Shown here: positions 2,281-56,436 of the stretch, piece by piece
Layout of the letters: every line of letters starts with the position of its first letter
Position numbering within the stretch: position 1 is the first letter of the stretch
From: an uncultured archaeon
Lineage (GTDB): Archaea > CAYFZR01
Assembly (NCBI GenBank): GCA_964347835.1
Contig: CAYFZR010000032.1
Span: forward strand, 17,814-81,813
Length of the DNA: 64,000 nucleotides
Direction: 5' to 3'
The notes under the pieces: generated by a model
What the model saw: the letters and a program-made list of their open reading frames with translations, nothing else
Databases searched by the model: none
Told to the model about the DNA's origin: nothing
Position numbers and translations under genes: made by a program

Positions 2281-3099
2281 TTATTCTGGCGCTTTGGCTA
2301 TTTCCCAAATTATATCGCTAAAAAGAGTAAAAGACCTGGCAAAGGCTTCGTTCTCAAAGTAAAGCCCAGTTATATGTAAAAGTCGATCGTCTTTTATTCC
2401 TGGTAGACATACAAAAAACGCCCTTGAATCAACTAGAACTGCTTTTACAGGGGGCATTACTCCTTCTTTTTCTCCAAATCTTATTAATGAAAGAAAACGC
2501 ATTATACCCTCTTTTTTTAGTTCTTCAAGATCTTTTTCTTCGATACCGTCTGGTATGATCGGTCTCTTTCGCCCAATGATCTTAATTTCAATATTGCTCT
2601 CTCGTTTTTCTTTGATAATGTCCTTTAAAATTTTAAGTTCATTTTTTAAAAAGTACCCTATTACAATTCGAATTTCCTTTTCTGCTCTCCTTAGTATCTC
2701 TTCCAATTTGATCAGGTAGTTTTGCTCACCGTTTACTATCCATACGGTAGTCTCTTCTTCATGAGGCTCTTCCCTTTTTAGATAAATTTCATTGAGGTAG
2801 GGAGTTATTTGTTCACTCAAATCTTTAAATTCGTTGGATCTTGATAAAACAAAGTTCTTTAGAGCATTACTTGGATCTAACGCTCTAAAAATACGGGGTC
2901 TTCCGTATTGTATCTCGAGCAAACCCCAATTTGCCAGCTTATCCAAGGCTTCGTAGACTTTAGGGCGAGAAAAACCTGATAATCTGCTTAATTCAGAAGC
3001 CGTAGACTGTCCATGGGATAAAAGGAGGAGATACGTCTTAGTCTCTGCTTCTGTCATGCCTAAATCCTGTAGCTGCCTTTGAATTTCAGGAAACTCCAT
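2281..3099 (-). CDS. TrmB-family transcriptional regulator (N-terminal wHTH plus C-terminal sensing domain)
   Basis: N-terminus MEFPEIQRQLQDLGMTEAETKTYLLLLSHGQSTASELSRLSGFSRPKVYEALDKLANWGLLE is a typical TrmB HTH; divergent from the ABC operon. Confidence 0.8.
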   Translation of the reverse strand: MEFPEIQRQLQDLGMTEAETKTYLLLLSHGQSTASELSRLSGFSRPKVYEALDKLANWGLLEIQYGRPRIFRALDPSNALKNFVLSRSNEFKDLSEQITPYLNEIYLKREEPHEEETTVWIVNGEQNYLIKLEEILRRAEKEIRIVIGYFLKNELKILKDIIKEKRESNIEIKIIGRKRPIIPDGIEEKDLEELKKEGIMRFLSLIRFGEKEGVMPPVKAVLVDSRAFFVCLPGIKDDRLLHITGLYFENEAFARSFTLFSDIIWEIAKAPE

Positions 3100-7434: not shown

Positions 7435-8658
7435 TTGGATCCTAAATATGTTTGTCATATGCAAACCCAAATTGTAGGGGGTAACAAGTTGTCAGTTGAA
7501 TTAAAAGATGGAGTTTATTGGGTAGGCGCTATAGATTGGAATATAAGGGATTTTCATGGCTATACAACGCCAAAAGGGACCACATACAACGCCTATCTTA
7601 TAGTGGATGAGAAAATAGTGGTAGTTGATACAGTAAAACACGGATTTTTTGATGATATGCTGAGAGGAATTAAAGAAATTGTAGATCCAAGAGAAATCGA
7701 TTATGTGGTCTCTAATCATGTTGAAAAAGATCACTCAGGCTCCCTATCTGATATAATGAGGTTAGCCAAGAATGCAGAAATTTATGCCACGGGAAGAGGG
7801 AAAGAAGGATTAATAAAATATTTCAAGCAAGATTGGACTTTTAACATCGTTAAAACAGGAGATGAACTAAATATAGGCAAGAAGAATTTGATGTTTATTG
7901 AAGCACCAATGTTGCACTGGCCAGATAGCATGTTTACGTATATAAAAGAAGATCGCATCCTCTTACCCAACGATGCTTTTGGACAGCATATAGCAACTCA
8001 TCAGAGATTTGACGATGAGGTAAAGGATGTAATGGAAGATGCGGCTACCTATTATGCAAATATATTAATGCCCCTTGCTCCTTTGATACTGAAGAAGATA
8101 GAAGAAATCGTGAATTTGGGCATAAAAATAGATATGATCGGTCCCAGTCATGGCATAATATGGCGTAAGGAACCTGAGAAAATAATCAACGCGTACATCG
8201 ATTGGAGCAAGGGAGTTGCAAGAGACAAGATTTTAATTGTCTACGATACAATGTGGGGAAGCACAGAAAAAATAGCCAGATCCATTCTACGAGGAATAAA
8301 CAAAGAAGGCGTAGAAGCTAAATTGTTGAAGTTGAGAGAAAATCATAGAAGCGCTGTCATAAAGGAAGTTCTAGACTCCAAGGTCGTTCTCGTGGGGTCG
8401 CCGACTATTAACAATGGAATATTTCCTACTGTAGCAGATTTCTTGACTTATTTGAAAGGATTGAAGCCTAAGAAAAAGATAGGAGCAACTTTCGGATCTT
8501 ACGGTTGGGGAGGCGGCGCTTGTAAGGTAATAGAAAAAGAATTGAGAGAAATCGGTTTTGAAGTCTTAGATGCAAATTTAGAGTTTAAATACGTTCCAGA
8601 TGAAAGCGAGTTGGAAAGATGCGTCGAATTTGGAAAAGAACTTGTAAAGAAGTTGTAA
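7435..8658 (+). CDS. fprA: Flavodiiron protein (FprA-type; metallo-beta-lactamase-like diiron domain plus flavodoxin domain)
   Basis: H-x-E-x-D-H diiron motif HVEKDHSGSL; C-terminal flavodoxin fold VLVGSPTINNG; true start may be the internal Met (MQTQ...). Confidence 0.85.
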   Translation: MDPKYVCHMQTQIVGGNKLSVELKDGVYWVGAIDWNIRDFHGYTTPKGTTYNAYLIVDEKIVVVDTVKHGFFDDMLRGIKEIVDPREIDYVVSNHVEKDHSGSLSDIMRLAKNAEIYATGRGKEGLIKYFKQDWTFNIVKTGDELNIGKKNLMFIEAPMLHWPDSMFTYIKEDRILLPNDAFGQHIATHQRFDDEVKDVMEDAATYYANILMPLAPLILKKIEEIVNLGIKIDMIGPSHGIIWRKEPEKIINAYIDWSKGVARDKILIVYDTMWGSTEKIARSILRGINKEGVEAKLLKLRENHRSAVIKEVLDSKVVLVGSPTINNGIFPTVADFLTYLKGLKPKKKIGATFGSYGWGGGACKVIEKELREIGFEVLDANLEFKYVPDESELERCVEFGKELVKKL

Positions 8659-8853
8659 ATGTGGTAAGAGCCGATAATTGATAATAATTGAAACACGAAC
8701 GTCATATTAATAATGTCATATTGAATAGTTACAAGGGATACGAAAATAGGCGTATTATGTAATAAATATGACTAAATTCATAGAATAATGTATATAAATA
8801 AGTAAATATCTGTGTGAATATCGTTAAATTTATAAAGAAAAAGGAGGGTGTGA

Positions 8854-9357
8854 ATGAGTAAAACTGAAAAAAATTTGGAAACGGCATTCGCTGGAGAGAG
8901 CCAAGCAAATAGAAAGTACCTCGCATATGCAAAGAAAGCCGACGATGAAGGTTATAGACAAATAGCAAGGCTTTTCCGAGCAGTAGCAGCGGCAGAAACT
9001 ATTCATGCACACAATCATTTTAAAATTATGGAAGGGGTTAAAACTACGGATGAAAATTTGAGGGCAGCGATAGAAGGAGAACATTATGAGTTTACGAAGA
9101 TGTACCCAGAATTTATAGAGCAGGCCAATAAAGAAGAGAATAAAAGAGCAGCCAGGAGTTTCAATTGGGCCAATGAGGTCGAGAGAATACATGGAGAACT
9201 CTACACTAACTTTCTAGAAAGGTTGAAAGCAGGCGAGGAACTCGAAGAAAAGGATTTCTATGTGTGCGGGGTTTGTGGTTATACCTTAGAGGGAGAGTTG
9301 CCAGATAACTGTCCTATATGCAGAGCGGTTAAAGACAAGTTTATAAAAATAGAGTAG
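8854..9357 (+). CDS. rbr: Rubrerythrin
   Basis: NLETAFAGESQANRKY ferritin-like diiron motifs plus C-terminal rubredoxin-like CGVCGY...CPICR; GGAGGG RBS. Confidence 0.9.
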   Translation: MSKTEKNLETAFAGESQANRKYLAYAKKADDEGYRQIARLFRAVAAAETIHAHNHFKIMEGVKTTDENLRAAIEGEHYEFTKMYPEFIEQANKEENKRAARSFNWANEVERIHGELYTNFLERLKAGEELEEKDFYVCGVCGYTLEGELPDNCPICRAVKDKFIKIE

Positions 9358-9369
9358 AGGTGTGTCTTT

Positions 9370-9534
9370 ATGAGTGAAAAATGGGAATGTACAATATGCG
9401 ATTGGGTTTATGATCCCGATGAAGGAGATCCCGATGGCGGAATAGAGCCGGGAACTCCCTTTGAAGATATACCAGATGACTGGGTATGTCCTGTTTGTGG
9501 AGCGCCAAAAGATATGTTTGAAAAAATAGAATGA
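9370..9534 (+). CDS. rub: Rubredoxin (54 aa; below the ORF-track size cutoff)
   Basis: Own translation [54 protein letters not shown]; two CxxC pairs with the classic WVCPVCG motif. Confidence 0.85.
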
Positions 9535-9543
9535 GGTGATAGA

Positions 9544-9924
9544 ATGGCTGTCGAGAAATCTTGCGAAGAAGATCTCTTTTGTGGTTTGAATAAACCCGCA
9601 GACATAAAAAGTATGACCGATCTGGAGAAAAAACATACTCCAATAATCGAGGCACCATCTAAGGTCAAAGAAGGAGAAGTATTCGAAGTTAACGTGGAAG
9701 TTGGAAAACTTATGAAACATCCGAATGAAATTGGACATTTCATCCAATGGATAGAACTTTATTCTGGAGATACTTTTCTAACAAGGGTTGATTTGACTCC
9801 AGAACTTACCGAACCAAAGATTACTGTTCCTGTGCGCTTGACTCACACCCATTCATTGAAAACGGTTATAAGATGCAATCTTCACGGTCTGTGGGAGAAC
9901 ACCAAAGAAATTAATGTAGAGTAG
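9544..9924 (+). CDS. sor: Superoxide reductase (desulfoferrodoxin/neelaredoxin family) with short N-terminal extension
   Basis: EKKHTPIIEAP motif and C-terminal CNLHGLWEN Cys-ligand motif. Confidence 0.8.
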   Translation: MAVEKSCEEDLFCGLNKPADIKSMTDLEKKHTPIIEAPSKVKEGEVFEVNVEVGKLMKHPNEIGHFIQWIELYSGDTFLTRVDLTPELTEPKITVPVRLTHTHSLKTVIRCNLHGLWENTKEINVE

Positions 9925-9954
9925 ATCTAAGGGCAAAGATAAGTTTTTTTTTAA

Positions 9955-10398
9955 ATGAATAACGAGAGGTCTGATATGGCGATTGATAAAGAAAAATTAA
10001 TAGAATTACTTAATGACGATCTTTCTTGGGAATATACTGCATTGGTGCAGTATGTACAACACAGCGGAGTTATAACAGGCGCTGAATATGGAGATATTGT
10101 AAAAGAGATTAGAATCCACGCCACAGAGGAAATGCAGCATGCTATAGTACTGGTTGATCAAATCGATTATTTAGGAGGTACACCAACGACAAAAGTATAT
10201 CCTGCCAAAACTTCAGGAGATTCCGTGGAGATGTTGCAGCAAGATCTGGATGGAGAGGAAGACGCGATAAGGAGATATAAAGAACGAATCGAGCAGGCAG
10301 AAGAACTTAAAGAGTTCGCTTTGGCTCAAAAACTTCGCGAAATATTAGCAATGGAGCAAGAACACGCCATGGATCTTAAATTTGCCTTAGGAAAGTAA
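9955..10398 (+). CDS. Ferritin-like diiron-domain protein (bacterioferritin/Dps-like)
   Basis: E...EEMQH...E pattern resembling Bfr four-helix-bundle ligands. Confidence 0.5.
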   Translation: MNNERSDMAIDKEKLIELLNDDLSWEYTALVQYVQHSGVITGAEYGDIVKEIRIHATEEMQHAIVLVDQIDYLGGTPTTKVYPAKTSGDSVEMLQQDLDGEEDAIRRYKERIEQAEELKEFALAQKLREILAMEQEHAMDLKFALGK

Positions 10399-10520: not shown

Positions 10521-11336
10521 TTGCTAATTTCAAGTCCCTTTGTTAGACTAAGGCGAGTAATCACATGCCCTCCTTTATATCTTGGGTTAGATCCCATAGA
10601 CGAGATATCTAAAACATGGTCAAGAAAAAATGATTTTGATAAGGATTTAGCCATGGAACAGCATGAAAACTTTATAGACACATTGAAATCAGAGAGGGTG
10701 AAGGTTGAAATTTTAGAGGCTTCGCCCGGAAAAGGAAACCAAACCTTTGTGAGAGACGTGGGATTTTCATTTAGAGAAGGAATTTTAATAGGCCGAATGA
10801 GAGAATCTACAAGACAAGGAGAAGAAAATCTTCTCTCTGAATTTATTGATCGTTTAAATCTTCCTATCATCCATAGAATAAAGAAAGGATTTCTAGAGGT
10901 AGGTGATATTCTAGCAATTGATGAAGAAAAAATATTCATTGGACATGGAAACAGAACAGATTTTGAAGGAATACAAGAAATTAAAACCCTTTTAGAAAAT
11001 TTAGAAATAAATACAATCCATTTAAAAAAAGAATTTGTTCATTTGGATTTAGCAATGAACGTTGTGGATGATTCAACCATCATAATGTTTCCAAATGCAT
11101 TTAATGAAGAAATAGAAATTTCTGACTGGAACATCATATTTGCAAACGAAAGAGAATACCTAACGATACCGGCCAATGTATTACTTCTAAAAAAAGGAAG
11201 GATTATCGCATCAGAAGAGAACTATCTGACCAATAAATCATTGGAAAAGGAAGGTATAGATGTATTGACGGTTAAAATTAACGAACTTTTAAAGGCAGGA
11301 GGAGGGCCACGCTGTCTAACTCTTCCAATTTTTTGA
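10521..11336 (+). CDS. Amidinotransferase-superfamily enzyme (DDAH/arginine deiminase-like, pentein fold)
   Basis: C-terminal GGGPRCLTLPIF with catalytic Cys a few residues from the end, as in DDAH; real start probably the internal Met (MEQHENF). Confidence 0.6.
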   Translation: MLISSPFVRLRRVITCPPLYLGLDPIDEISKTWSRKNDFDKDLAMEQHENFIDTLKSERVKVEILEASPGKGNQTFVRDVGFSFREGILIGRMRESTRQGEENLLSEFIDRLNLPIIHRIKKGFLEVGDILAIDEEKIFIGHGNRTDFEGIQEIKTLLENLEINTIHLKKEFVHLDLAMNVVDDSTIIMFPNAFNEEIEISDWNIIFANEREYLTIPANVLLLKKGRIIASEENYLTNKSLEKEGIDVLTVKINELLKAGGGPRCLTLPIF

Positions 11337-11514
11337 AGCAATCCACTTCCTGCACTTCTTCAGTTATCTCTTTTGAGCAGAGAAATTCTTTCTTCCTTTG
11401 GTAGATCATATATCGTTATTCTACATGCCTTAAGGAGACAAATTTATAAACAATTTTCTTTATTAGTTTTTGATCGAGGCTTAAACGAACACTATAAACA
11501 AAAGGAGACAATAA

Positions 11515-12240
11515 ATGGGAGAAGATAGAAAAAATGAAGGTTGTATGGTTTGTGCAAAGGAACTCGAGTATCTTGAAAAGCCCGTTGATGTGAGGTGCAT
11601 TTACTGCGGAGAAGAAGATCAAGGATATTTTATCTGCAAAGAAGGACATTATGTCTGCGAGGAATGCCATTCGAAGGGAGCAATAGATCTTATAACTCAA
11701 TTCTGCCTATCTTCAGAATCAAAAAACCCCTTTGAGATGGCAAACGCAATAATGAAACATCCAAAAATACCCATGATCGGTCCGGAGCATCATGCAATGA
11801 TAGCAGGTGTTTTGGTTACTGGTTATCGAAACTTAACAGGAAAAGGGACCGAAGATGATATTATAGAGGCGATAAGGCGTGGTAGTAAAGTTCCCGCTGG
11901 TTATTGCGGTTTATATGGTGCAGATGGGGTTGCTATTGCTACCGGCATAGCCTTATGCGTTATCTTAGGCTCAACGCCTCTTTCTGATAAAGAAAGATCT
12001 ATAGCAAATACGATGACTTCTCGTGCTCTCGCGGCAGTAGCGAATGCAAGAGGGGCAAGATGCTGTAAAAGAAGCACTTGGATTGTTTTAGATATAGCCG
12101 TTCAATATATAAGGGATGTTTTAGGTGTTGATTTAGAGTACGTTCCTCTTTCAGAAATAAAGTGTGATTATAGTGGTAGGAATAAATACTGCAGCAAAGA
12201 AGATTGCATATTTTATGTATCTGATAATACCAAAGATTAA
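11515..12240 (+). CDS. Cys-rich hypothetical protein (N-terminal paired CxxC zinc-ribbon-like motifs, CC and C-terminal Cys cluster)
   Basis: CMVCAKE...CIYCGEE...CKEGHYVCEECH...CCK...CDYSGRNKYCSKEDC; good RBS AAAAGGAGA. Confidence 0.4.
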   Translation: MGEDRKNEGCMVCAKELEYLEKPVDVRCIYCGEEDQGYFICKEGHYVCEECHSKGAIDLITQFCLSSESKNPFEMANAIMKHPKIPMIGPEHHAMIAGVLVTGYRNLTGKGTEDDIIEAIRRGSKVPAGYCGLYGADGVAIATGIALCVILGSTPLSDKERSIANTMTSRALAAVANARGARCCKRSTWIVLDIAVQYIRDVLGVDLEYVPLSEIKCDYSGRNKYCSKEDCIFYVSDNTKD

Positions 12241-12252
12241 GGGGAAATCTTT

Positions 12253-14103
12253 GTGAGTATAACGGTTTATAGTTTAAAAACATGTCCTTACTGTAGGCTG
12301 GTAGAGAGTTTTCTAGATGACCATGGTGTAGAATACGAGAGAATAATGGTTGACGAGTTGGGTGGAGAAGAGCAAAAAAAAGCAATAGCAGAGGCGTATC
12401 GATTAAGCGGTCAACGAAGTTTTCCCGTTATTCGCATAAACGAGAGGAGCATCATCGGCTTCGATGAAGCAAGAATGAGGAAGGCTTTAAATCTTAAGGC
12501 AAAGGACATTGTCCTTCCGAAATCGCCAGTTGTGGAAGAAAAGAAGAAAGATCTTCAGAAATACTATGATATCTTTAAAAAGCAGGCTGACAAAACAGGA
12601 TACCTCCTAAACCCCAATCGCGATTTTGTAGAGAGGATTTTGCTTGGCCTCATGGAAAATAAAGAGCGTTATGGCTATGCTACTTGTCCTTGTAGTTTGG
12701 CTAGCGGCAAAATAGAAGAGGACAAAGACTTAATCTGTCCATGCGCAAATAGAGATCTGCATCTCCAGAGATACGGTCGCTGCCTCTGCGGACTTTATAT
12801 AACGGAAGACTATAATCCTTATGATCCAACTAGCCCCTTGTGTATAGCAGAATATCATGAAGAAATGCTCGAACACGAGATTTCCACACCAACTTACGTT
12901 AAGGTATTTGGCTATTCTTTGAGAGGAGTAGATGAAGAAAGCATTAAAAATAACTTCGAAAAAGTCGCAAGTTTGTGTGAAATAAATTTAGAGGAGATAA
13001 AATGGAAAGAGAAGACTGCCTCCGTTTCTAAAACCTTCGAGGGTAAGTATCGATTAATTCTTAAAATGGATATTTCCAAGGATTTCTACAATTATCAAGT
13101 ATGGACGATTTCAATTAAAGAATCTCCGGCTGAAATCTTCAATTTAATCGATCATTTGGCCCCATTAGAATTACCTGATGTTCACAATCAACTCTTTGTG
13201 TTAGATATCCTATTGAACGAAGAGGAGTTTTTTTACGAAAATTTAGACTATTTTATGCCAAAAATCGATAAAGTGGGAAGTAAAATCTTAGATGGTATTC
13301 AGGTAATGAGCAGTGATCAGGAAAAAAGGATAGGGAGAGAAAGATACTTGGTTTCTCCCATGCAAGAGAGAATCGTAGACGATATAATAACAATAGAATC
13401 CAACTACCACCTACTCCATCTGGAGAAGCAAAAATACATTTTGATCTCTGATCGTCTAAGTCGAATTGAGGAAGAAACAGTATCGAAATTGGGATCTGTA
13501 AGCATTGGTCTGGCACAAGCAGACCATGATATTCTAAAAGATTGGATGCATGACATTAGCAATAGTTTTTCTGAAATAGCAGGCATTACTGAAGAAGTGA
13601 ACCACCATTTTCTCGATGCAACCTCCCACAGAAACATTTTAGAAACTATCTTCGTCGGTTGGAAAGAGCGCGAGGTAGATGCGTTACCATTAATATCGAC
13701 TTCCATTCTAAGTAAGGTTAAAGGCATCAAAGAAGACTACGAGACACTATATAATCGAATAGATGGTATACGTAAGGAAATGGAGGACATCATCAATATT
13801 TTACGAACTAAAATAGAGTTAATCCAACAAGAACAGAGTTTTGATCTTCAGAAAAGCATGCATGCTACTGCCAAGACGCAACTGGATTTACAAAAAGCAG
13901 TCAAAGGAGTGTATGTATTTTTGGTGGCATTTTATTTCACTGAACTTGCACTGATAATTTTCGAGGCAATGGAGGCAAGAGGAATAATTCATATAGATCC
14001 TTCCATTCCTGCTGCACTTTTCATTCCAGTAGCGATATTTTTAGGATGGATACTATCGGGAAAGGCAGAAGAAATGATTATGGGGAAAAGAAAACACTTA
14101 TAA
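12253..14103 (+). CDS. Fusion protein: glutaredoxin-like domain (CPYC) plus ferredoxin:thioredoxin-reductase-like catalytic domain (CPC..CPC..CLC) plus about 400-aa coiled-coil-rich domain ending in two TM helices
   Basis: SLKTCPYCRLV; GYATCPCSLASGKIEEDKDLICPCANRDLHLQRYGRCLCGLY; C-terminal GVYVFLVAFYFTELALIIF and IPAALFIPVAIFLGWILSG. Confidence 0.6.
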   Translation: MSITVYSLKTCPYCRLVESFLDDHGVEYERIMVDELGGEEQKKAIAEAYRLSGQRSFPVIRINERSIIGFDEARMRKALNLKAKDIVLPKSPVVEEKKKDLQKYYDIFKKQADKTGYLLNPNRDFVERILLGLMENKERYGYATCPCSLASGKIEEDKDLICPCANRDLHLQRYGRCLCGLYITEDYNPYDPTSPLCIAEYHEEMLEHEISTPTYVKVFGYSLRGVDEESIKNNFEKVASLCEINLEEIKWKEKTASVSKTFEGKYRLILKMDISKDFYNYQVWTISIKESPAEIFNLIDHLAPLELPDVHNQLFVLDILLNEEEFFYENLDYFMPKIDKVGSKILDGIQVMSSDQEKRIGRERYLVSPMQERIVDDIITIESNYHLLHLEKQKYILISDRLSRIEEETVSKLGSVSIGLAQADHDILKDWMHDISNSFSEIAGITEEVNHHFLDATSHRNILETIFVGWKEREVDALPLISTSILSKVKGIKEDYETLYNRIDGIRKEMEDIINILRTKIELIQQEQSFDLQKSMHATAKTQLDLQKAVKGVYVFLVAFYFTELALIIFEAMEARGIIHIDPSIPAALFIPVAIFLGWILSGKAEEMIMGKRKHL

Positions 14104-14180
14104 TATAAAACGATAGCCGCCATCTTTATATATATGTAAAAATTCTCCTCAGTTATATAGCAAATTCGAGGTGAAGTAAT

Positions 14181-14363
14181 ATGATTCCAGTGGTAGATCA
14201 TGAAAAATGCGATGGCGATGGAATTTGTGTAGATGTATGTCCAACGGAAGTATTTGAACTCGAAGGAGGAAAATCTATCGTCGCTCGCCCAGAAGATTGT
14301 ATAGAGTGCGAAGTATGTATTGACGAATGTCCTCAAGCAGCGATAACGTTAGAAGAAGAATGA
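14181..14363 (+). CDS. fdx: 2x[4Fe-4S] ferredoxin (60 aa)
   Basis: CDGDGICVDVCP and CIECEVCIDECP cluster motifs. Confidence 0.85.
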   Translation: MIPVVDHEKCDGDGICVDVCPTEVFELEGGKSIVARPEDCIECEVCIDECPQAAITLEEE

Positions 14364-14573: not shown

Positions 14574-14819
14574 ATGAAAAAAACAAATCCTGAGCCTGAT
14601 AAATCAATAGATTTAATTGGATTGTACTGTCCAATACCCATTTTTAAAACAAGAGAGGCATTGGATGGGATGGAGGTAGGGGAGATTTTAGAGGTTCTTG
14701 CTGACGACCCGGCTGCAGAAGAAGATTTGAGGCGTTTTGCGAAAAGAACCGGTCAAGAACTTCTTGAAATTAAAAAGGAAGGAGATGTCCTTCGTTTCAT
14801 TTTTAAAAAAAATAAATAA
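14574..14819 (+). CDS. tusA: TusA-like sulfurtransferase (SirA/YedF/YeeD family)
   Basis: CPIP active-site motif in GLYCPIPIFKTREAL. Confidence 0.8.
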   Translation: MKKTNPEPDKSIDLIGLYCPIPIFKTREALDGMEVGEILEVLADDPAAEEDLRRFAKRTGQELLEIKKEGDVLRFIFKKNK

Positions 14820-15221
14820 ATGAGAGTTATATTAAGGAGTTTGTTATTTATGCCTGAACATAAAAAAAAGATAATGTATGTCCAAACAAGCGGAGTAAAC
14901 ACTCCTGAAAGGCTTTATTCGCCATTTGTATTGGCACAAACCGCTAAAGCCATGGACATAGAACCTATAATTTATTTCCTTGGAATGGGATTGACAGTGA
15001 TTAAAAAAGGCGAAGCAGAGAAGATACAGTTGGGCAGTTTTCCCAGTCTAAAGGAAGTAATGGACCAGACGGCTAAAATGGGTGTCAAATTCTACGTATG
15101 CGAACAGAGTACTCAGTTATTGAACATGGAAAGAGGAGACTTCATAGAAGAAGCCAAAATAGTTGGAGCCGCTACCCTGAATGATTTAGTCTTAGAAGTA
15201 GATGGAGTAATGTGGTTTTAA
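14820..15221 (+). CDS. DsrE/DsrF-like family protein
   Basis: about 120-aa core with conserved Cys (YVCEQS); typical TusA partner; start probably internal Met (MYVQTSG). Confidence 0.55.
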   Translation: MRVILRSLLFMPEHKKKIMYVQTSGVNTPERLYSPFVLAQTAKAMDIEPIIYFLGMGLTVIKKGEAEKIQLGSFPSLKEVMDQTAKMGVKFYVCEQSTQLLNMERGDFIEEAKIVGAATLNDLVLEVDGVMWF

Positions 15222-15222
15222 A

Positions 15223-16383
15223 ATGAGAAAGGTATACATGGACTATGCTGCATCGTCGCCTACAGATCCGCGCGTTATAGAGGCGATGGTTCCTTATTAT
15301 AATGAAAAATATGGAAATCCATCCTCTTTGTATACTTTTGCGCATGAAGATAAAGTAGCTCTACAACAATCGAGAAAAAAGGTGGCAGAACTAATAGGGG
15401 CAAAAGATAGTGAAATTATCTTTACCTCCGGTGCAACGGAAAGTATCAACCTAGCATTAAAAGGAACTGCCTACAGAAATAAAACGAAAGGAAATCATAT
15501 CATTACTTCAAAAATAGAGCACATTTCCGTGTTGAATACATGTAAATATCTTCAGACGGAAGGTTTTAATATTTCATATATACCGGTAGATGAATACGGA
15601 ATGGTCGATGTAGAAAAGTTAAAGGAAGAGATATCGGAAGAAACCATACTCATCTCCATCATCTATGCGAACAACGAGATTGGAACAATACAGCCCATTA
15701 AGGAGATAGGCGAGATTGCGAGTGACAAAGAAATTTACTTCCACGTAGATTCTGTGGCGTCCTTGGGTAAGGTTCCAATAGACGTTGTAAGGGATGATAT
15801 AAGTTTATTATCAATGTCTTCAAACGATATCTACGGTCCTAAAGGTAAAGGCGCCCTGTATATTAAAAAAAGAACCAAAATAGCCCCGATTATACATGGA
15901 GGCGGACAGGAAGAGGGATTGCGATCCGGCACCGAGGACATACCCGGTATCGTGGGTATGGGCAAGGCCGCTGAATTCATAAAAGAAGAAATGAGTGAAG
16001 AAAGTAAAAGACTGACAAAATTAAGGGATAAGATAATAAAAGGCACTCTTGAGAACATAGACCACTGCTATCTGAATGGGCACCTTACAGAAAGACTTCC
16101 AAACAATATAAATCTCAGATTCAACTATATTGAAGGAGAATCTTTAATCTTAAGCCTTGATATGTATGGAATTTCTGCCTCGACCGGCTCTGCGTGTACT
16201 TCAAAGACTTTAGAGCCTTCACATGTACTGACTGCAATAGGCTTGCCGCATGAACTAGCCCACGGATCATTACAACTCACACTCGGCAAGTCAAATGATG
16301 AGGAAGATGTGAAATATTTATTAGAAGTTTTACCAGAAGTAGTAGAGAAGTTAAGAGAGTTATCTCCATTAACACCGAGGTGA
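15223..16383 (+). CDS. iscS: IscS/NifS-like cysteine desulfurase homolog lacking the PLP-binding lysine (SSND instead of SGHK)
   Basis: Fold-type I aminotransferase; SMSSNDIYGPKGKGALY aligns to E. coli IscS SFSGHKIYGPKGIGALY; catalytic-loop Cys retained (STGSACTS). Confidence 0.8.
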   Translation: MRKVYMDYAASSPTDPRVIEAMVPYYNEKYGNPSSLYTFAHEDKVALQQSRKKVAELIGAKDSEIIFTSGATESINLALKGTAYRNKTKGNHIITSKIEHISVLNTCKYLQTEGFNISYIPVDEYGMVDVEKLKEEISEETILISIIYANNEIGTIQPIKEIGEIASDKEIYFHVDSVASLGKVPIDVVRDDISLLSMSSNDIYGPKGKGALYIKKRTKIAPIIHGGGQEEGLRSGTEDIPGIVGMGKAAEFIKEEMSEESKRLTKLRDKIIKGTLENIDHCYLNGHLTERLPNNINLRFNYIEGESLILSLDMYGISASTGSACTSKTLEPSHVLTAIGLPHELAHGSLQLTLGKSNDEEDVKYLLEVLPEVVEKLRELSPLTPR

Positions 16384-16387
16384 TTTA

Positions 16388-16765
16388 ATGTATAGCGAGA
16401 AGGTCATGGATCACTTCAGGAATCCTCGCAACGTTGGAGTAATCGAAGATGCAGACGGAGTAGGTACCGTAGGGAACCCTGTTTGTGGTGATCTCATGAG
16501 CGTGTACATAAAGGTCGAAGATAATAAATTAAAAGATGTAAAATTTCAGACCTTTGGATGCGGGGCAGCCATAGCCACAAGCAGTATGGTTACTGAACTA
16601 GCAAAAGGAAAAACTCTTGATGAGGCGCAAAAAATTACAAAAAAAGACGTTGCAGATGCCTTAGAAGGTTTACCTCCAGTAAAAATGCATTGCTCTAATC
16701 TTGCTGCAGATGCATTGCACGCGGCAATAGAAGATTTTAAAAAGAAAAAATCTCAGGAGAGTTGA
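16388..16765 (+). CDS. iscU: IscU/NifU-like Fe-S cluster scaffold
   Basis: GNPVCGDLMSV, FQTFGCGAAIATSS, MHCSNLAADAL with three conserved Cys. Confidence 0.85.
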   Translation: MYSEKVMDHFRNPRNVGVIEDADGVGTVGNPVCGDLMSVYIKVEDNKLKDVKFQTFGCGAAIATSSMVTELAKGKTLDEAQKITKKDVADALEGLPPVKMHCSNLAADALHAAIEDFKKKKSQES

Positions 16766-16769
16766 TAAA

Positions 16770-16919
16770 GTGGATTGTGAACTCTGTGGAAAAGAAATTT
16801 CCCCGGAAGATTGCTTATTTGCCATGCATAAAAAGGTTATAGATGATAAGGAGTATGTATTTTGCTGCTCAATTTGTCTAGAGTCCTTTAAGAAGAAAGA
16901 GGAAGAGGTGAAAGAATGA
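16770..16919 (+). CDS. small Cys-rich ORF (49 aa, GTG start) between iscU and nfu; not in ORF track
   Basis: Own translation VDCELCGKEISPEDCLFAMHKKVIDDKEYVFCCSICLESFKKKEEEVKE; its TGA overlaps the ATG of nfu (ATGA). Confidence 0.3.
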   Translation: MDCELCGKEISPEDCLFAMHKKVIDDKEYVFCCSICLESFKKKEEEVKE

Positions 16920-17146
16920 AAGAAGAAGTGGAAAAGGTAATCGATGAGTACATCAGACCAAGTCTCAAAATGGATGGAGGAGATATCGAATTAATTGGCA
17001 TAGACGAGGAAAACGATATTGTAAAGGTAAGATTGGTCGGTGCCTGCGCCGGCTGTCCGATGTCCCAGTTTACGGCTCTCAATGTTGTTGAGGGCACATT
17101 GAAAAGGTTTGTTAAGGACACAATAATAGTGGAGACAGTGATTTAG
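16916..17146 (+). CDS. nfu: Nfu/NifU C-terminal-domain Fe-S cluster carrier
   Basis: GACAGCPMS CxxC motif; 76 aa. Confidence 0.75.
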   Translation: MKEEVEKVIDEYIRPSLKMDGGDIELIGIDEENDIVKVRLVGACAGCPMSQFTALNVVEGTLKRFVKDTIIVETVI

Positions 17147-17349: not shown

Positions 17350-18060
17350 CTAACCTCCATAGGTATCTCTAACATCATAAAAAGGCTTATCTAAATCCTC
17401 GATTATCTTACAGGGTATATCTAACGCTTTTTTAGACTTTTTAATCAAAACGTGATCGCTCGTAGCAATACATTCAAAACCTAAGAGCTTCTTATCGCAA
17501 TGTTTTGAAGTAACAGCGGTACCGTTTAAACCTCTTTCATCTATATGTTCTTTTATTTTGCTCGATAATTCTCCGCTTTTCCTTACAGGACTGTCAAAAA
17601 CAAAAACCATATTTTTAGGAGGATAAATATTCAAAAGATCTAAAATAAGATTAATTGCCGTCATCGTATACTCACTCATCTTATACTTTCCGAAAGAAGC
17701 CTCAATGTCTCTAATGAAGGAATCGTCACATTTTATCAAAGGTTTATCCATCAGTATACATTCCGTAGTTATTAAAACGTTGTATCCGTCAATCCCTAAA
17801 TCCACGTTTATTAAATCATTCATTTTTATACGTCTTTTTCTAAGTTGTTCTGCCTCTTTCTTAGAAAATATAGCCCTAGCCAAAAGATTTCTCTCTTTTA
17901 GAGAAAGCAAATGATGGTCTGAAACAAATTTCAAGGCGCTCTTCTTTTTGTAACCGCTTTCTAACAAAAATCTAAGTTCCTGAGCAGCTTTCAATACTTT
18001 ATTCCATGTAAATGGCTGGTCTAAAGGGTTTTGCATGGGCTCTCTTATTTTTTGGGTCAT
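17350..18060 (-). CDS. conserved hypothetical protein (archaeal DUF434-like)
   Basis: Track ORF; 5' end overlaps the leuS 3' end, so the true start is probably an internal Met. Confidence 0.35.
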
Positions 18061-53322: not shown

Positions 53323-53413
53323 TGCCGGGGGCGGGTTTCGAACCCGCGACCTCCAGGTTTCCCAGGAGACTCTCCCTATGAGCCTGGCGCTCCGCCCCCT
53401 GAGCTACCCCGGC
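53323..53413 (-). tRNA. tRNA-Met or Ile2 (anticodon CAT) with an about 18-nt canonical intron at position 37/38; 91 nt
   Basis: Hand fold of reverse complement: GCCGGGG-TA-GCTC-AGGGGGCG-GAGC-G-CCAGG-CTCATA[GGGAGAGTCTCCTGGGAA]A-CCTGG-AGGTC-GCGGG-TTCGAAA-CCCGC-CCCCGGC-A. Confidence 0.75.
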
Positions 53414-54126: not shown

Positions 54127-56436
54127 TCACTGAATGATAAAGGTGGTCGTCACTATACTGGCACTTACATTGAAATTGTAGCCGTCTTTGATGACGTCTA
54201 TCACATTGGCTTTGTATGTTCCCGCTGCTTGAGTTCTCGAGGTCTTCCACTGCATTACCGCATCGCCGTTGGTATCACTGAACCCCTGAAGAGATTTCAC
54301 CACTAAACCGTTGGGATCGGAGATATCTAGGAACACCTGTGCACCGGAGATGGGCACTCGAACTGTATCTACTTCTTCTACGGTGTGGGCCACGATTCCT
54401 ACTGTATCACGCGCCCTGAATGTATCTGTCTGGGTCACCAGATTTCCTCTCTTATCGACTGACCAGGTGGTCAGACTGTCTACGAAGAGATCTGGCATCG
54501 GTGGTGTAACCTTCTTTCCCCATTCTGTGGATGTCATCACGTATGGTTCTGCCATGCCTGTATTCATCCACGCATCCAGCAGGTTTATACCTTCCTCAGC
54601 TAGGAATGGATTCTGACCGTTGTTGCCTAGATAGAGGAACTGTATGTACTCCCAGCTCGTTGGCTGGTAGAGAAGGTCAATAGTCGCGTACACGGCGTGA
54701 GTTGGTGGATTCAGCGTGAACTCGTCCCAGTAGTTATATTTACCGCCTGCTACAGGGTTTCCGTATTGATCCGCTGGCACAGGGAGTGCGTTTCGAATCT
54801 TTGCTTCGTCGAAGCTCATCTCGTAGGGCGGAATGCGGTTGTCCTTGGCAACTTTGTTGTTCAGGACGAAATGGAAGGACTCGTGGTAGGTTCCGGGTGC
54901 CTGAGCCGATAGATTTCCAAGCGTATAGTCCACCGCACCAGTAATGCGGTCGTAGCTCAACGGAAGGTCTGAGCTATATCCAAATCCTATGAGCTGGTTA
55001 GCCCATTCTTGCGTCATGGCATAGTGGGCCTCATATATCTTGGTGTTTGGGTCATTAAGGTCCAAAATGGTTTTTACTTGTGTCGGCGTGCCGCCGATGT
55101 TTACTGTTATATTGCCGTATTTTCCGTCTTCACGCAGGAGTTCTCCGTCACTATCATACCACTTGATACTAAGCCACATCCTGCGTCCTTCTGGATAGCC
55201 AGAGATAAGCTTGTGCCCGGCATGATTGACAACTTTTAGAATGTTACCGCTTAACGAGAGCGTGGCTGCCTCACTTAGCTGCTTCATGGCCCTAGTCTTG
55301 CCGTCATTTAGCGCTGCAATCTGGGTCGAACTGAGATCGCCGCCGATTCTTAGCTTGCCTTGGGCATCTAGATACTGTATTGCGTCTGGCATCCAGTAGT
55401 TGCCACCAGTCATGTCGTGTAGCGGCAAGTCCTTTCTGATCTTCGGGTTCTTGTTGCAGCCCTGGCCGTTCACGGGGCGAAGGTGGCAGGTCTGGCATGT
55501 GTAGTACCTTGGTGTATTGTCCTCGTAATTTCCGCCTGTTCCGGCTAAGATGGCGCTCTCATAACCGGCCTTGAGAGCCCCGTCCTGGAGGTCAACGGGA
55601 AGATTCATGTAATCAGAGACCAGCACAGTGTCCAACATGCTTGCCTTCCACTCACTGTATGTTCTCTCCACAATCCCATACTGATAGGGGAAGTTGTTAA
55701 AGGCCGCCTTTCCTTCTACTGGCGAACCGAGCGTCCCGTTGTATGTTCCAGGCTCAAGCGGTACCTGGGCTCCGTTGTTATGTGCTAAATCACCTACTGC
55801 TGGGTTTGAGACGTCATGGCAAGTTCCGCAGAGATCACCTGAGCGGTAGAACTTGGACTGCAAGAACTGATGCCTGGCTTCTGCGTCGATATATGGTCCC
55901 AGCTTATCAGAGCCATCCCAGAGAACGTACATTCCGCTTCCATAGTATCCGACTAAGTTACCGTCGCTTATATTGTAGGCTATAAACGGTGGATTCTGAA
56001 CACCAATGTGTTCTGATTGGTCAGGATTGGTCAACTTATGGCATAAGTCGCATTCGACGCCGTCTCCATCACTTGGTCTCAATGCTGATCCATCAGTCGG
56101 TGTAGAACGTCCTTCCACCCATCCGGTCACGCTGTGGCAGCGGATGCAAAGATCTCCAGCTCCATCAAAGTCCTGTTCGGCTATAGCCAAAGTCGCCCAG
56201 AATATCGGATCGCGTCCGGCGTTTGCCATCATGCTTCCCCGCCAGTTGTGAGCAGGTTCCACTGTAATGTCATATCCACCGTGGCAGTTGTCGCATTTGT
56301 CGACTGACTCTATATTCCCTACTTCTCCTGGCTGTGTGCCTGGCATCTTGATTTCGTTGGGCACAATATCAGCTGCAAATGCAACAAAACCAACCAAAAG
56401 CATTAAAATCGTTGCTAAAAAAATCCTCTTTTTCAT
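54127..56436 (-). CDS. Multiheme c-type cytochrome (5 CxxCH) with N-terminal signal/TM and about 450-aa heme-free beta-rich C-terminal domain; atypically GC-rich gene
   Basis: CDNCH, CIRCH, CDLCH, CGTCH, CQTCH; N-terminus MKKRIFLATILMLLVGFVAFA; local GC about 50-55% versus about 35% flanks. Confidence 0.8.
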   Translation of the reverse strand: MKKRIFLATILMLLVGFVAFAADIVPNEIKMPGTQPGEVGNIESVDKCDNCHGGYDITVEPAHNWRGSMMANAGRDPIFWATLAIAEQDFDGAGDLCIRCHSVTGWVEGRSTPTDGSALRPSDGDGVECDLCHKLTNPDQSEHIGVQNPPFIAYNISDGNLVGYYGSGMYVLWDGSDKLGPYIDAEARHQFLQSKFYRSGDLCGTCHDVSNPAVGDLAHNNGAQVPLEPGTYNGTLGSPVEGKAAFNNFPYQYGIVERTYSEWKASMLDTVLVSDYMNLPVDLQDGALKAGYESAILAGTGGNYEDNTPRYYTCQTCHLRPVNGQGCNKNPKIRKDLPLHDMTGGNYWMPDAIQYLDAQGKLRIGGDLSSTQIAALNDGKTRAMKQLSEAATLSLSGNILKVVNHAGHKLISGYPEGRRMWLSIKWYDSDGELLREDGKYGNITVNIGGTPTQVKTILDLNDPNTKIYEAHYAMTQEWANQLIGFGYSSDLPLSYDRITGAVDYTLGNLSAQAPGTYHESFHFVLNNKVAKDNRIPPYEMSFDEAKIRNALPVPADQYGNPVAGGKYNYWDEFTLNPPTHAVYATIDLLYQPTSWEYIQFLYLGNNGQNPFLAEEGINLLDAWMNTGMAEPYVMTSTEWGKKVTPPMPDLFVDSLTTWSVDKRGNLVTQTDTFRARDTVGIVAHTVEEVDTVRVPISGAQVFLDISDPNGLVVKSLQGFSDTNGDAVMQWKTSRTQAAGTYKANVIDVIKDGYNFNVSASIVTTTFIIQ

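Follow-up and report, generated by a model that had tools for sequence, protein, structure and literature searches.

This report concerns a 64,000-nt stretch of DNA (the window) from an uncultured archaeon, positions 17,814 to 81,813 of the forward strand of contig CAYFZR010000032.1 (GenBank assembly GCA_964347835.1), and a gene within it whose 616-aa product fuses a glutaredoxin-like (Grx) domain, a ferredoxin-dependent disulfide reductase (FDR) domain and a DUF3422 membrane domain. It is firmly established that one conserved polypeptide combines the three, and the fusion is a rare yet conserved membrane protein of strict anaerobes. The best explanation, which we advance tentatively, is that it is a channel-like membrane protein controlled by ferredoxin/thiol redox state and acting in the oxidative-stress response of anaerobes. 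A first-pass annotation, made from the sequence without database searches, had placed three open reading frames (ORFs) at 11515–14363, with coordinates and lengths exactly as we find them, and had divided the 616-aa protein into three parts, for which Pfam gives Glutaredoxin, FeThRed_B and DUF3422. The gene and its parts are as follows (TM, transmembrane helix; FTRc, catalytic subunit of ferredoxin:thioredoxin reductase, FTR).

12253–14103 including stop, + strand: Grx-FDR-DUF3422 fusion gene, 616 aa (ORF call, Pfam domains, full-length homologues)
12259–12453, + strand: glutaredoxin-like domain, residues 3–67, active site C11-P-Y-C14 (PF00462, 47.2 bits against a cutoff of 22.9)
12553–12819, + strand: FDR (FTRc-like) domain, residues 101–189, with Cys145/147, 162/164 and 177/179 (PF02943, 76.8 bits against a cutoff of 22)
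12865–14100, + strand: DUF3422 domain, residues 205–616 (PF11902, AlphaFold2 model, structural matches)
13906–13974, + strand: predicted TM1, about residues 552–574 (hydropathy peak at residue 561)
14002–14058, + strand: predicted TM2, about residues 584–602, with family-invariant Pro592 (hydrophobic segment centred on residue 592)

The fusion ORF has a GTG start 12 nt past the preceding stop codon with an AGGGG Shine-Dalgarno-like site in front, and in all homologues the N-terminus aligns with that of the window protein, MSITVYSLKTCPYC. Among 5.8 billion proteins searched, nine were full-length fusion homologues. One is identical, another, from a Candidatus Hydrothermarchaeota metagenome-assembled genome (MAG), has 74% identity, and seven from Deltaproteobacteria-type MAGs have 37–39%. 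Profile search of 1.84 billion cluster representatives added the divergent fusion clusters P0024, P0029, P0030, P0057 and P0059. Scanning species-representative genomes gave 15 fusion loci, all collinear across query residues 1 to ~615, with the following distribution.

Hydrothermarchaeota: 1 locus
Deltaproteobacteria: 1 locus
Nitrospirota: 2 loci
Planctomycetota: 11 loci, several in Brocadiaceae including Ca. Wunengus

Eight further loci, several of them incomplete, came from a metagenome scan. The fusion is found at about 25 loci, distributed over Hydrothermarchaeota, Planctomycetota (anammox Brocadiaceae), Nitrospirota and Deltaproteobacteria. In an alignment of 24 fusions the eight redox Cys, two in the Grx CxxC and six in the FDR domain, are 100% conserved; strict selection on the cytoplasmic redox domains is firmly established. 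The first-pass annotation had raised the possibility that a sequencing frameshift had turned a separate gene into the C-terminal 400 aa. Since independent assemblies covering no fewer than four phyla contain the same uninterrupted ORF, at 33–100% identity and always collinear from residue 1 to ~615, we reject a frameshift or gene-fusion artefact of sequencing or assembly, whose probability is negligible. The C-terminal part is genuine, full-length fusions at 33–74% identity being spread across four phyla.

The glutaredoxin-like CPYC domain named in the first-pass annotation was borne out by the Pfam match, and its nearest solved relatives in a PDB sequence search are the archaeal Grx-like structures 3IC4, 3NZN and 5CAX. 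The CxxC expected of a glutaredoxin is present as CPYC at residues 11–14 and is invariant in the 24 fusions, while its inner dipeptide takes the forms PY, LY, HW, YK, HK and PL among orthologues, a wide variation that argues against a classical glutathione-dependent Grx.

Next to it the first-pass annotation had placed an FTR-like domain with six Cys. The domain does align to FtrB/FDR profiles and does have, in three CxC motifs, the six Cys expected for four cluster ligands and a redox-active pair, but the spacing is x14 and not x16: the pattern is CPC-x14-CPC-x12-CLC, identical in spacing to PDB structures 7PWE and 4TPU. Classical plant and cyanobacterial FTR has CPC-x16-CPC-x8-CHC, with a catalytic His in the CHC and a variable subunit as partner. 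Because of the x14/x12 spacing and a CxC without His, we assign the domain to the FDR type and not to the classical FTR catalytic subunit. Residues 99–186 match 4TPU, the Methanosarcina acetivorans FDR (E = 1.2e-22), and residues 3–187 match residues 6–174 of 7PWE, a glutaredoxin/ferredoxin disulfide reductase fusion from Desulfotalea psychrophila, in one alignment (E = 1.9e-34, ~32% identity). The nearest NCBIfam model of the FDR domain is a selenoprotein family, with a score under the cutoff. The 7PWE protein has the same two domains in the same order, with the Grx CxxC and CPC-x14-CPC-x12-CxC; it is soluble, has ~196 aa and ends its Cys pattern with CYC, whereas the window protein has CLC and continues for 430 residues into a membrane domain. 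The Methanosarcina FDR shares the FTRc-like catalytic domain with the window protein but is soluble and has a C-terminal rubredoxin domain, in place of which the window protein has an N-terminal Grx. By sequence, the N-terminal 190 aa can be recognized as the already known Grx/FDR unit solved as 7PWE, and the novelty would lie in what comes after it; the first-pass claim that the Grx-FTR-like fusion was undescribed does not survive the existence of that crystal structure. PMC6262447, following works that it cites (its references 29–32), summarizes FDRs as FTRc-related Fe-S enzymes that occur in archaea and bacteria. In Methanosarcina they are reported to be ferredoxin-dependent and to reduce particular thioredoxin/Grx-like proteins, and one of them is reported to supply electrons to class III ribonucleotide reductase.

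The remainder of the protein had been read in the first pass as a coiled-coil linker or sensor extension of about 400 aa. It is instead a folded DUF3422 domain, with an alpha/beta subdomain and long helices in a CorA-like architecture. The Pfam match is partial (residues 441–601, 58.6 bits against a cutoff of 25). When the 1.84 billion cluster representatives were searched with a profile of residues 205–616, 1,249 clusters matched at E<=1e-3, of which 737 at E<=1e-10, and 71 of 72 sampled family members match PF11902. Most of these clusters are stand-alone proteins of 410–460 aa, with no attached enzyme, and relatives carry no annotation beyond 'DUF3422 family protein' or 'uncharacterized membrane-anchored protein'. 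An AlphaFold2 model of the domain built from a 72-sequence alignment has a pLDDT (predicted local distance difference test) of 92 and a pTM (predicted template modelling score) of 0.79. A flexible linker of ~25 residues separates the domain from the Grx-FDR unit. The model shows an alpha/beta subdomain (214–368), two long helices (372–419 and 425–470), a stalk helix of ~95 residues (481–575) that runs into TM1, and TM2 (584–601). The two C-terminal TM helices were correctly called in the first pass; the hydrophobic segments are centred on residues 561 and 592. TM2 is followed by a basic C-terminal tail, predicted to be cytoplasmic, and from these features we predict an N-in/C-in topology with an external loop of ~9 residues.

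The stalk-TM1 helix is the best-conserved segment across the 1,249-cluster family, with the consensus LRTRVD..Q[N/S]..LL.SM..R..QL.LQ.TVEGLSV..ISYY; the most conserved family motif, LRTK..QEQS..QKSM..T.KTQ..LQ..V[E/K]G, precedes TM1. Conservation along the segment is alpha-helically periodic (8.6 times the mean power at 100 degrees); the power observed at 102.9 degrees is reached in 41 of 5000 shuffles. Polar residues make up the conserved face: R518, T519, Q528, S535, Q543, Q547 and E551. Such a polar, periodic and conserved face speaks for an independent role of the membrane-proximal helix, for example in lining a pore or funnel, and against its being a passive anchor. The two Hydrothermarchaeota proteins have AVKGVYV where the family-wide motif, located at the cytoplasmic mouth of TM1, reads TVEGLSV (K551/V553/Y554; nt 13903–13914).

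In a Foldseek search of the PDB with the DUF3422 model, the top 47 matches were all CorA or MRS2 (E 2e-4 to 1e-2, probability up to 0.99, ~450 aligned columns), with TM-scores of only 0.2–0.27; a lower-confidence full-length model gave the same picture. CorA/Mrs2/ZntB proteins are the best whole-domain structural matches of the model. The layout of CorA/MIT proteins was found in it, with two C-terminal TM helices, a long stalk helix before them and an N-terminal alpha/beta domain. The predicted likeness extends to the cytoplasmic position of the alpha/beta domain, a helical hairpin, the continuity of the stalk helix with TM1, the short external loop, TM2 and the basic C-terminal tail. That the membrane domain is CorA-like in its predicted architecture is firmly established. 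We know of no CorA-family member that carries an N-terminal redox enzyme.

The fusion is embedded in oxidative-stress gene sets, which is firmly established for the loci surveyed. In the window, the reactive oxygen species (ROS) detoxification cluster noted next to the redox module in the first pass is real and consists of five genes, while sulfur-trafficking and Fe-S assembly genes follow downstream.

7435–10398, + strand: ROS-defence cluster upstream of the redox module, a context common to the archaeal relative, made up of the next five genes
7435–8658: flavodiiron protein
8854–9357: rubrerythrin
9370–9534: rubredoxin
9544–9924: superoxide reductase
9955–10398: ferritin-like protein
14574–17146, + strand: TusA, DsrE, cysteine desulfurase, IscU and NifU-like genes, syntenic with the archaeal relative

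The ROS cluster lies upstream of the fusion in both archaeal genomes, in synteny, and the downstream synteny between the window and the archaeal relative takes in ferredoxin, TusA, DsrE, IscS, IscU, NifU and LeuRS genes. This synteny and the 74% identity to the Hydrothermarchaeota MAG make it very probable that the window comes from a Hydrothermarchaeota archaeon. Both genomes also have a DDAH/arginine-deiminase-superfamily gene between the ferritin-like gene and the redox module (window 10521–11336, + strand; L001:3345–4169).

Bacterial loci have a different constant companion. A conserved pair of small genes adjoins the fusion in 13 of 13 genome loci with upstream sequence and in three metagenome loci. 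One member is a half-ferritin of 70–78 aa, the other a half-rubrerythrin of 116–119 aa with a C-terminal rubredoxin-like ribbon (CPVC..CRMC). The pair lies upstream of the fusion in Planctomycetota and Nitrospirota and downstream in Deltaproteobacteria (examples are L004:9886–10450 and L011:1713–2332, with equivalent genes in L022–L037). Since one Glu and one ExxH are conserved in each half, the two together would form a rubrerythrin-type di-iron site, and we have named the pair split rubrerythrin, apparently two small di-iron proteins that have not been described before. No orthologue of the pair was found in the window, which has only the intact rubrerythrin and the ferritin-like gene upstream. 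In the Deltaproteobacteria, a Fur-family gene overlaps the fusion gene start (its best score is against PerR models, all scores being below curated cutoffs), and genes for hemerythrin, catalase, rubrerythrin and superoxide reductase follow. Planctomycetota loci have an extra 247-aa lipoprotein-like ORF with no Pfam match on record and with TPR-like repeats by eye.

The gene downstream of the fusion in the window supplies a further iron protein.

14181–14363, + strand: 60-aa ferredoxin, dicluster type (Pfam Fer4, Fer4_7)

It starts 77 nt after the fusion gene, with a TATA-like TTTATATATA ~45 nt upstream. The first pass had called its product a 2x[4Fe-4S] ferredoxin. The Pfam matches are to the dicluster type, but there are seven Cys, in the motifs CxxDxxCxxxCP and CxxCxxCxxxCP, so that one cluster would be of the Asp-ligated [4Fe-4S] or the [3Fe-4S] type. 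The ferredoxin is the likely electron donor of the FDR domain, a role already thought plausible in the first pass: its gene is kept downstream of the fusion in the archaeal relative (L001), and a ferredoxin of the same type is fused to DUF3422 elsewhere. The latter proteins, P0039 (L013:1337–2797) and P0041 (L016:6001–7554, a Leptospirillia MAG), have a dicluster ferredoxin (Fer4) directly fused at the N-terminus of DUF3422, with neither Grx nor FDR. The window ferredoxin aligns end to end with the Fer4 domain of P0039 at 38% identity (E = 3e-13) and with that of P0041 at 33% (E = 4e-8). Fer4-DUF3422 is a second, independent fusion of a redox domain to the same membrane family. A small iron protein is always beside or fused to the membrane domain in these lineages, and its identity switches from a ferredoxin gene (Hydrothermarchaeota) to the split-rubrerythrin ribbon (bacteria) to a fused Fer4 domain (P0039, P0041).

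Stand-alone DUF3422 proteins belong to the same membrane domain family and conserve R518, Q528, Q543, Q547 and the stalk-TM1 motif; they differ from the window protein in having no fused redox module and are ~15–38% identical to the window domain. Their genes, too, lie in operons for stress detoxification or linked to thiols. P0026 (L044:2027–5304), the stand-alone protein closest to the fusion, is encoded in a putative nitrosative/oxidative-stress operon with genes for a Crp/Fnr regulator, a 45-aa ORF, DUF1858 (ScdA_N-like), a CopD-like membrane protein, DUF3422 and an 80-aa ORF. DUF3422 is present on 351 plasmids. On E. coli and Comamonas plasmids it lies inside a glutathione-dependent formaldehyde detoxification operon, frmR (or LysR)-adhC-VOC-DUF3422-fghA (L048:3951–8213 on E. 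coli plasmid NZ_AP027687.1; L046 on the Comamonas plasmid). A homologue 60–80% identical to the Comamonas protein is found on 113 plasmids, many of them conjugative Enterobacteriaceae plasmids; homologues at ~67–71% identity are on Klebsiella, Enterobacter, Aeromonas and Acinetobacter plasmids, the operon context having been seen for E. coli and Comamonas. This plasmid operon is a genetically tractable route to DUF3422 function. In Bradyrhizobium, DUF3422 adjoins hupUV, and contexts in Nitrospira, Leptospirillia and others, stand-alone and Fer4-fused, were uninformative. The recurring theme is stress or thiol-linked detoxification together with metalloenzymes. A separate Grx-FDR gene was beside none of the nine stand-alone DUF3422 loci examined. 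We also rejected the idea that stand-alone proteins sense through two semi-conserved Cys that the fused versions lost. The two Cys do not strictly co-occur (31 proteins have both, 21 neither and 20 one), and the clade nearest the fusion, fused or unfused, lacks the pair altogether, which counts against it.

In the mechanism that we infer, the cytoplasmic N-terminus would act as an FDR in which a [4Fe-4S] cluster adjoins a redox-active disulfide, with a Grx-like CxxC domain in front of it as its own acceptor, and the DUF3422 part would be built like a CorA/Mrs2/ZntB channel subunit. The co-encoded small iron protein would pass electrons to the FDR cluster; depending on lineage, this source would be the 60-aa ferredoxin (Hydrothermarchaeota), the rubredoxin-like tail of split rubrerythrin (bacteria) or a fused ferredoxin domain (some relatives). 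The FDR would reduce its own disulfide and then the Grx CxxC. The thiol/disulfide state of the module would report whether the low-potential electron pool is intact or has been oxidized by O2 or H2O2, and would in turn control a membrane pore formed by a DUF3422 oligomer. For the transported species our leading guess is a divalent metal such as Fe2+, because of the fold analogy and the di-iron and ferritin iron-protein partners. MbfA-type erythrin-VIT1 iron exporters offer a conceptual precedent: in these, a rubrerythrin-like di-iron domain works together with a metal transporter in the membrane to counter peroxide and iron stress. They differ in having a VIT1 membrane fold and in the erythrin being fused, whereas the fusion loci have a separate split pair in bacteria and no such pair in the window.

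Several observations weigh against a channel. The DUF3422 domain differs from CorA/Mrs2/ZntB in the low TM-scores and in sequence: no GMN or GxN follows TM1, where the sequence is FEAMEARGIIHIDPS and the family consensus keeps the Gly without M-N; hhalign against E. coli CorA gave 0.6% probability, a weak test because the template was a single sequence; none of 72 DUF3422 members matched PF01544 at E<=1; and the DUF3422 profile found no match among PDB sequences. Sequence-level homology to CorA was not found in these searches, and for want of such a link we describe DUF3422 as CorA-like in architecture and do not place it in the CorA family. The window protein and its archaeal relative have Lys in place of the family's Glu551, which is 94% conserved. 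No Cys is universally conserved in the DUF3422 part of the 24 aligned fusions; none there could thus take up the reducing equivalents of the Grx in cis, and a disulfide target inside that domain was rejected. The formaldehyde/glutathione plasmid operon and the hupUV context in Bradyrhizobium indicate no single substrate, and the literature searched contained neither experimental data for any DUF3422 protein nor a mention of DUF3422, PF11902, COG4949 or 7PWE.

The main rival to the channel, unlikely in our estimation yet the one to be taken most seriously, makes DUF3422 only an oligomerizing anchor that places Grx-FDR at the inner face of the membrane, with nothing crossing it; the enzyme would reduce disulfides or peroxide-damaged thiols, or exchange electrons with the adjacent (split) rubrerythrin peroxidase. 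That all redox Cys are invariant and no DUF3422 Cys is fits an enzyme acting in trans; every bacterial locus has next to the fusion a partner of rubrerythrin type with a rubredoxin-like tail; and the M. acetivorans FDR itself bears a rubredoxin domain; a membrane-localized reductase was also among the options of the first-pass annotation. Yet a domain of 410 aa is unnecessary for a mere anchor, and neither the stalk-TM1 helix, with its family-wide conservation and polar, helically periodic face, nor the invariant Pro in TM2 is what an anchor calls for. Moreover, most family members have no attached enzyme, so that the membrane domain must serve some purpose by itself. A redox sensor or transducer, which would sense the ferredoxin/thiol state and signal to an adjacent transcription factor, for example by membrane sequestration, is improbable. 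A regulator gene does lie directly upstream in deltaproteobacterial loci (PerR-like) and in the archaeal relative (TrmB), and the long helices resemble signalling stalks; but no output or partner-binding domain is recognizable, the window, Planctomycetota and Nitrospirota loci lack an adjacent regulator, the external loop has only ~9 residues, and PerR senses peroxide unaided.

The first-pass annotation had itself proposed a ferredoxin-driven thiol/disulfide relay or redox-signalling system at the membrane, considered here as a dedicated relay of three components, the fusion and its two neighbours. The third member lies immediately upstream.

11515–12240, + strand: DUF5714 Cys-rich protein, 241 aa (PF18978, E = 2e-61, 207 bits against a cutoff of 26.2)

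In the window this gene ends 12 nt before the fusion gene and is probably co-transcribed with it, and the ferredoxin gene follows after the 77-nt gap noted above; both DUF5714 and the FDR domain, moreover, have selenoprotein families as their nearest NCBIfam models, each below cutoff (for DUF5714, the metal-binding selenoprotein MbdU, at 194 far below its cutoff of 600). Against these points, DUF5714 is absent from all ~25 related loci, including the syntenic relative at 74% identity, and neither it nor the ferredoxin gene occurs in any bacterial fusion locus examined. The relay is largely refuted by this neighbourhood survey as regards DUF5714, and we give it slightly less credence even than the sensor; both are less likely than a channel or a tethered enzyme. 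The three genes grouped together in the first pass do not form a conserved unit: the ferredoxin gene is lineage-specific, and DUF5714 is a lineage-specific accessory outside the conserved system. In the archaeal relative its place is taken by an inverted DsrE/TusA/DsrH/thioredoxin-like block and a TrmB regulator. This interval (L001:4276–7833; window 11337–12252), bounded by the DDAH gene and the fusion gene, both syntenic, is a variable hotspot of insertion, and a TrmB paralogue is encoded in the window at 2281–3099 on the - strand.

What is already known is the Grx-FDR unit (7PWE) and DUF3422 as a catalogued, uncharacterized family. As far as our searches show, an FDR fused to a CorA-like membrane domain, the obligatory pairing with split rubrerythrin in three bacterial phyla and the parallel Fer4-DUF3422 fusions are undescribed. 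A redox-controlled, channel-like fusion, if true, would physically couple the ferredoxin/thiol redox network of anaerobes to a pore-like membrane protein, a coupling not previously described. It would provide the first functional hypothesis for DUF3422 (~1,250 clusters), with the invariant Cys, the polar stalk-TM1 face and defined partner genes as handles, and would identify a conserved oxidative-stress module (split rubrerythrin + Grx-FDR-DUF3422) in oxygen-sensitive lineages of environmental importance, such as anammox Brocadiaceae and Nitrospirota. A bolder and doubtful extension is that DUF3422 constitutes an unrecognized branch of CorA-like oligomeric channels, here gated by the attached Fe-S disulfide reductase, such that the redox state of the ferredoxin pool would directly open and close a pore, probably for iron or another metal, when strict anaerobes, anammox bacteria among them, come under oxygen or peroxide stress. 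A channel under the control of a covalently fused ferredoxin:disulfide reductase would to our knowledge be the first of its kind, and the reading would assign a function to a family found on clinical resistance plasmids.

Elsewhere in the window, a 769-aa ORF on the - strand (54127–56436) has a signal-peptide-like N-terminus and five CxxCH haem-binding motifs and encodes a putative secreted multihaem cytochrome. The G+C content is ~0.50 across 54300–56400 against ~0.37 in the rest of the window, and a tRNA gene lies at 53323–53413; the region is a compositional island and may have come in by horizontal transfer.

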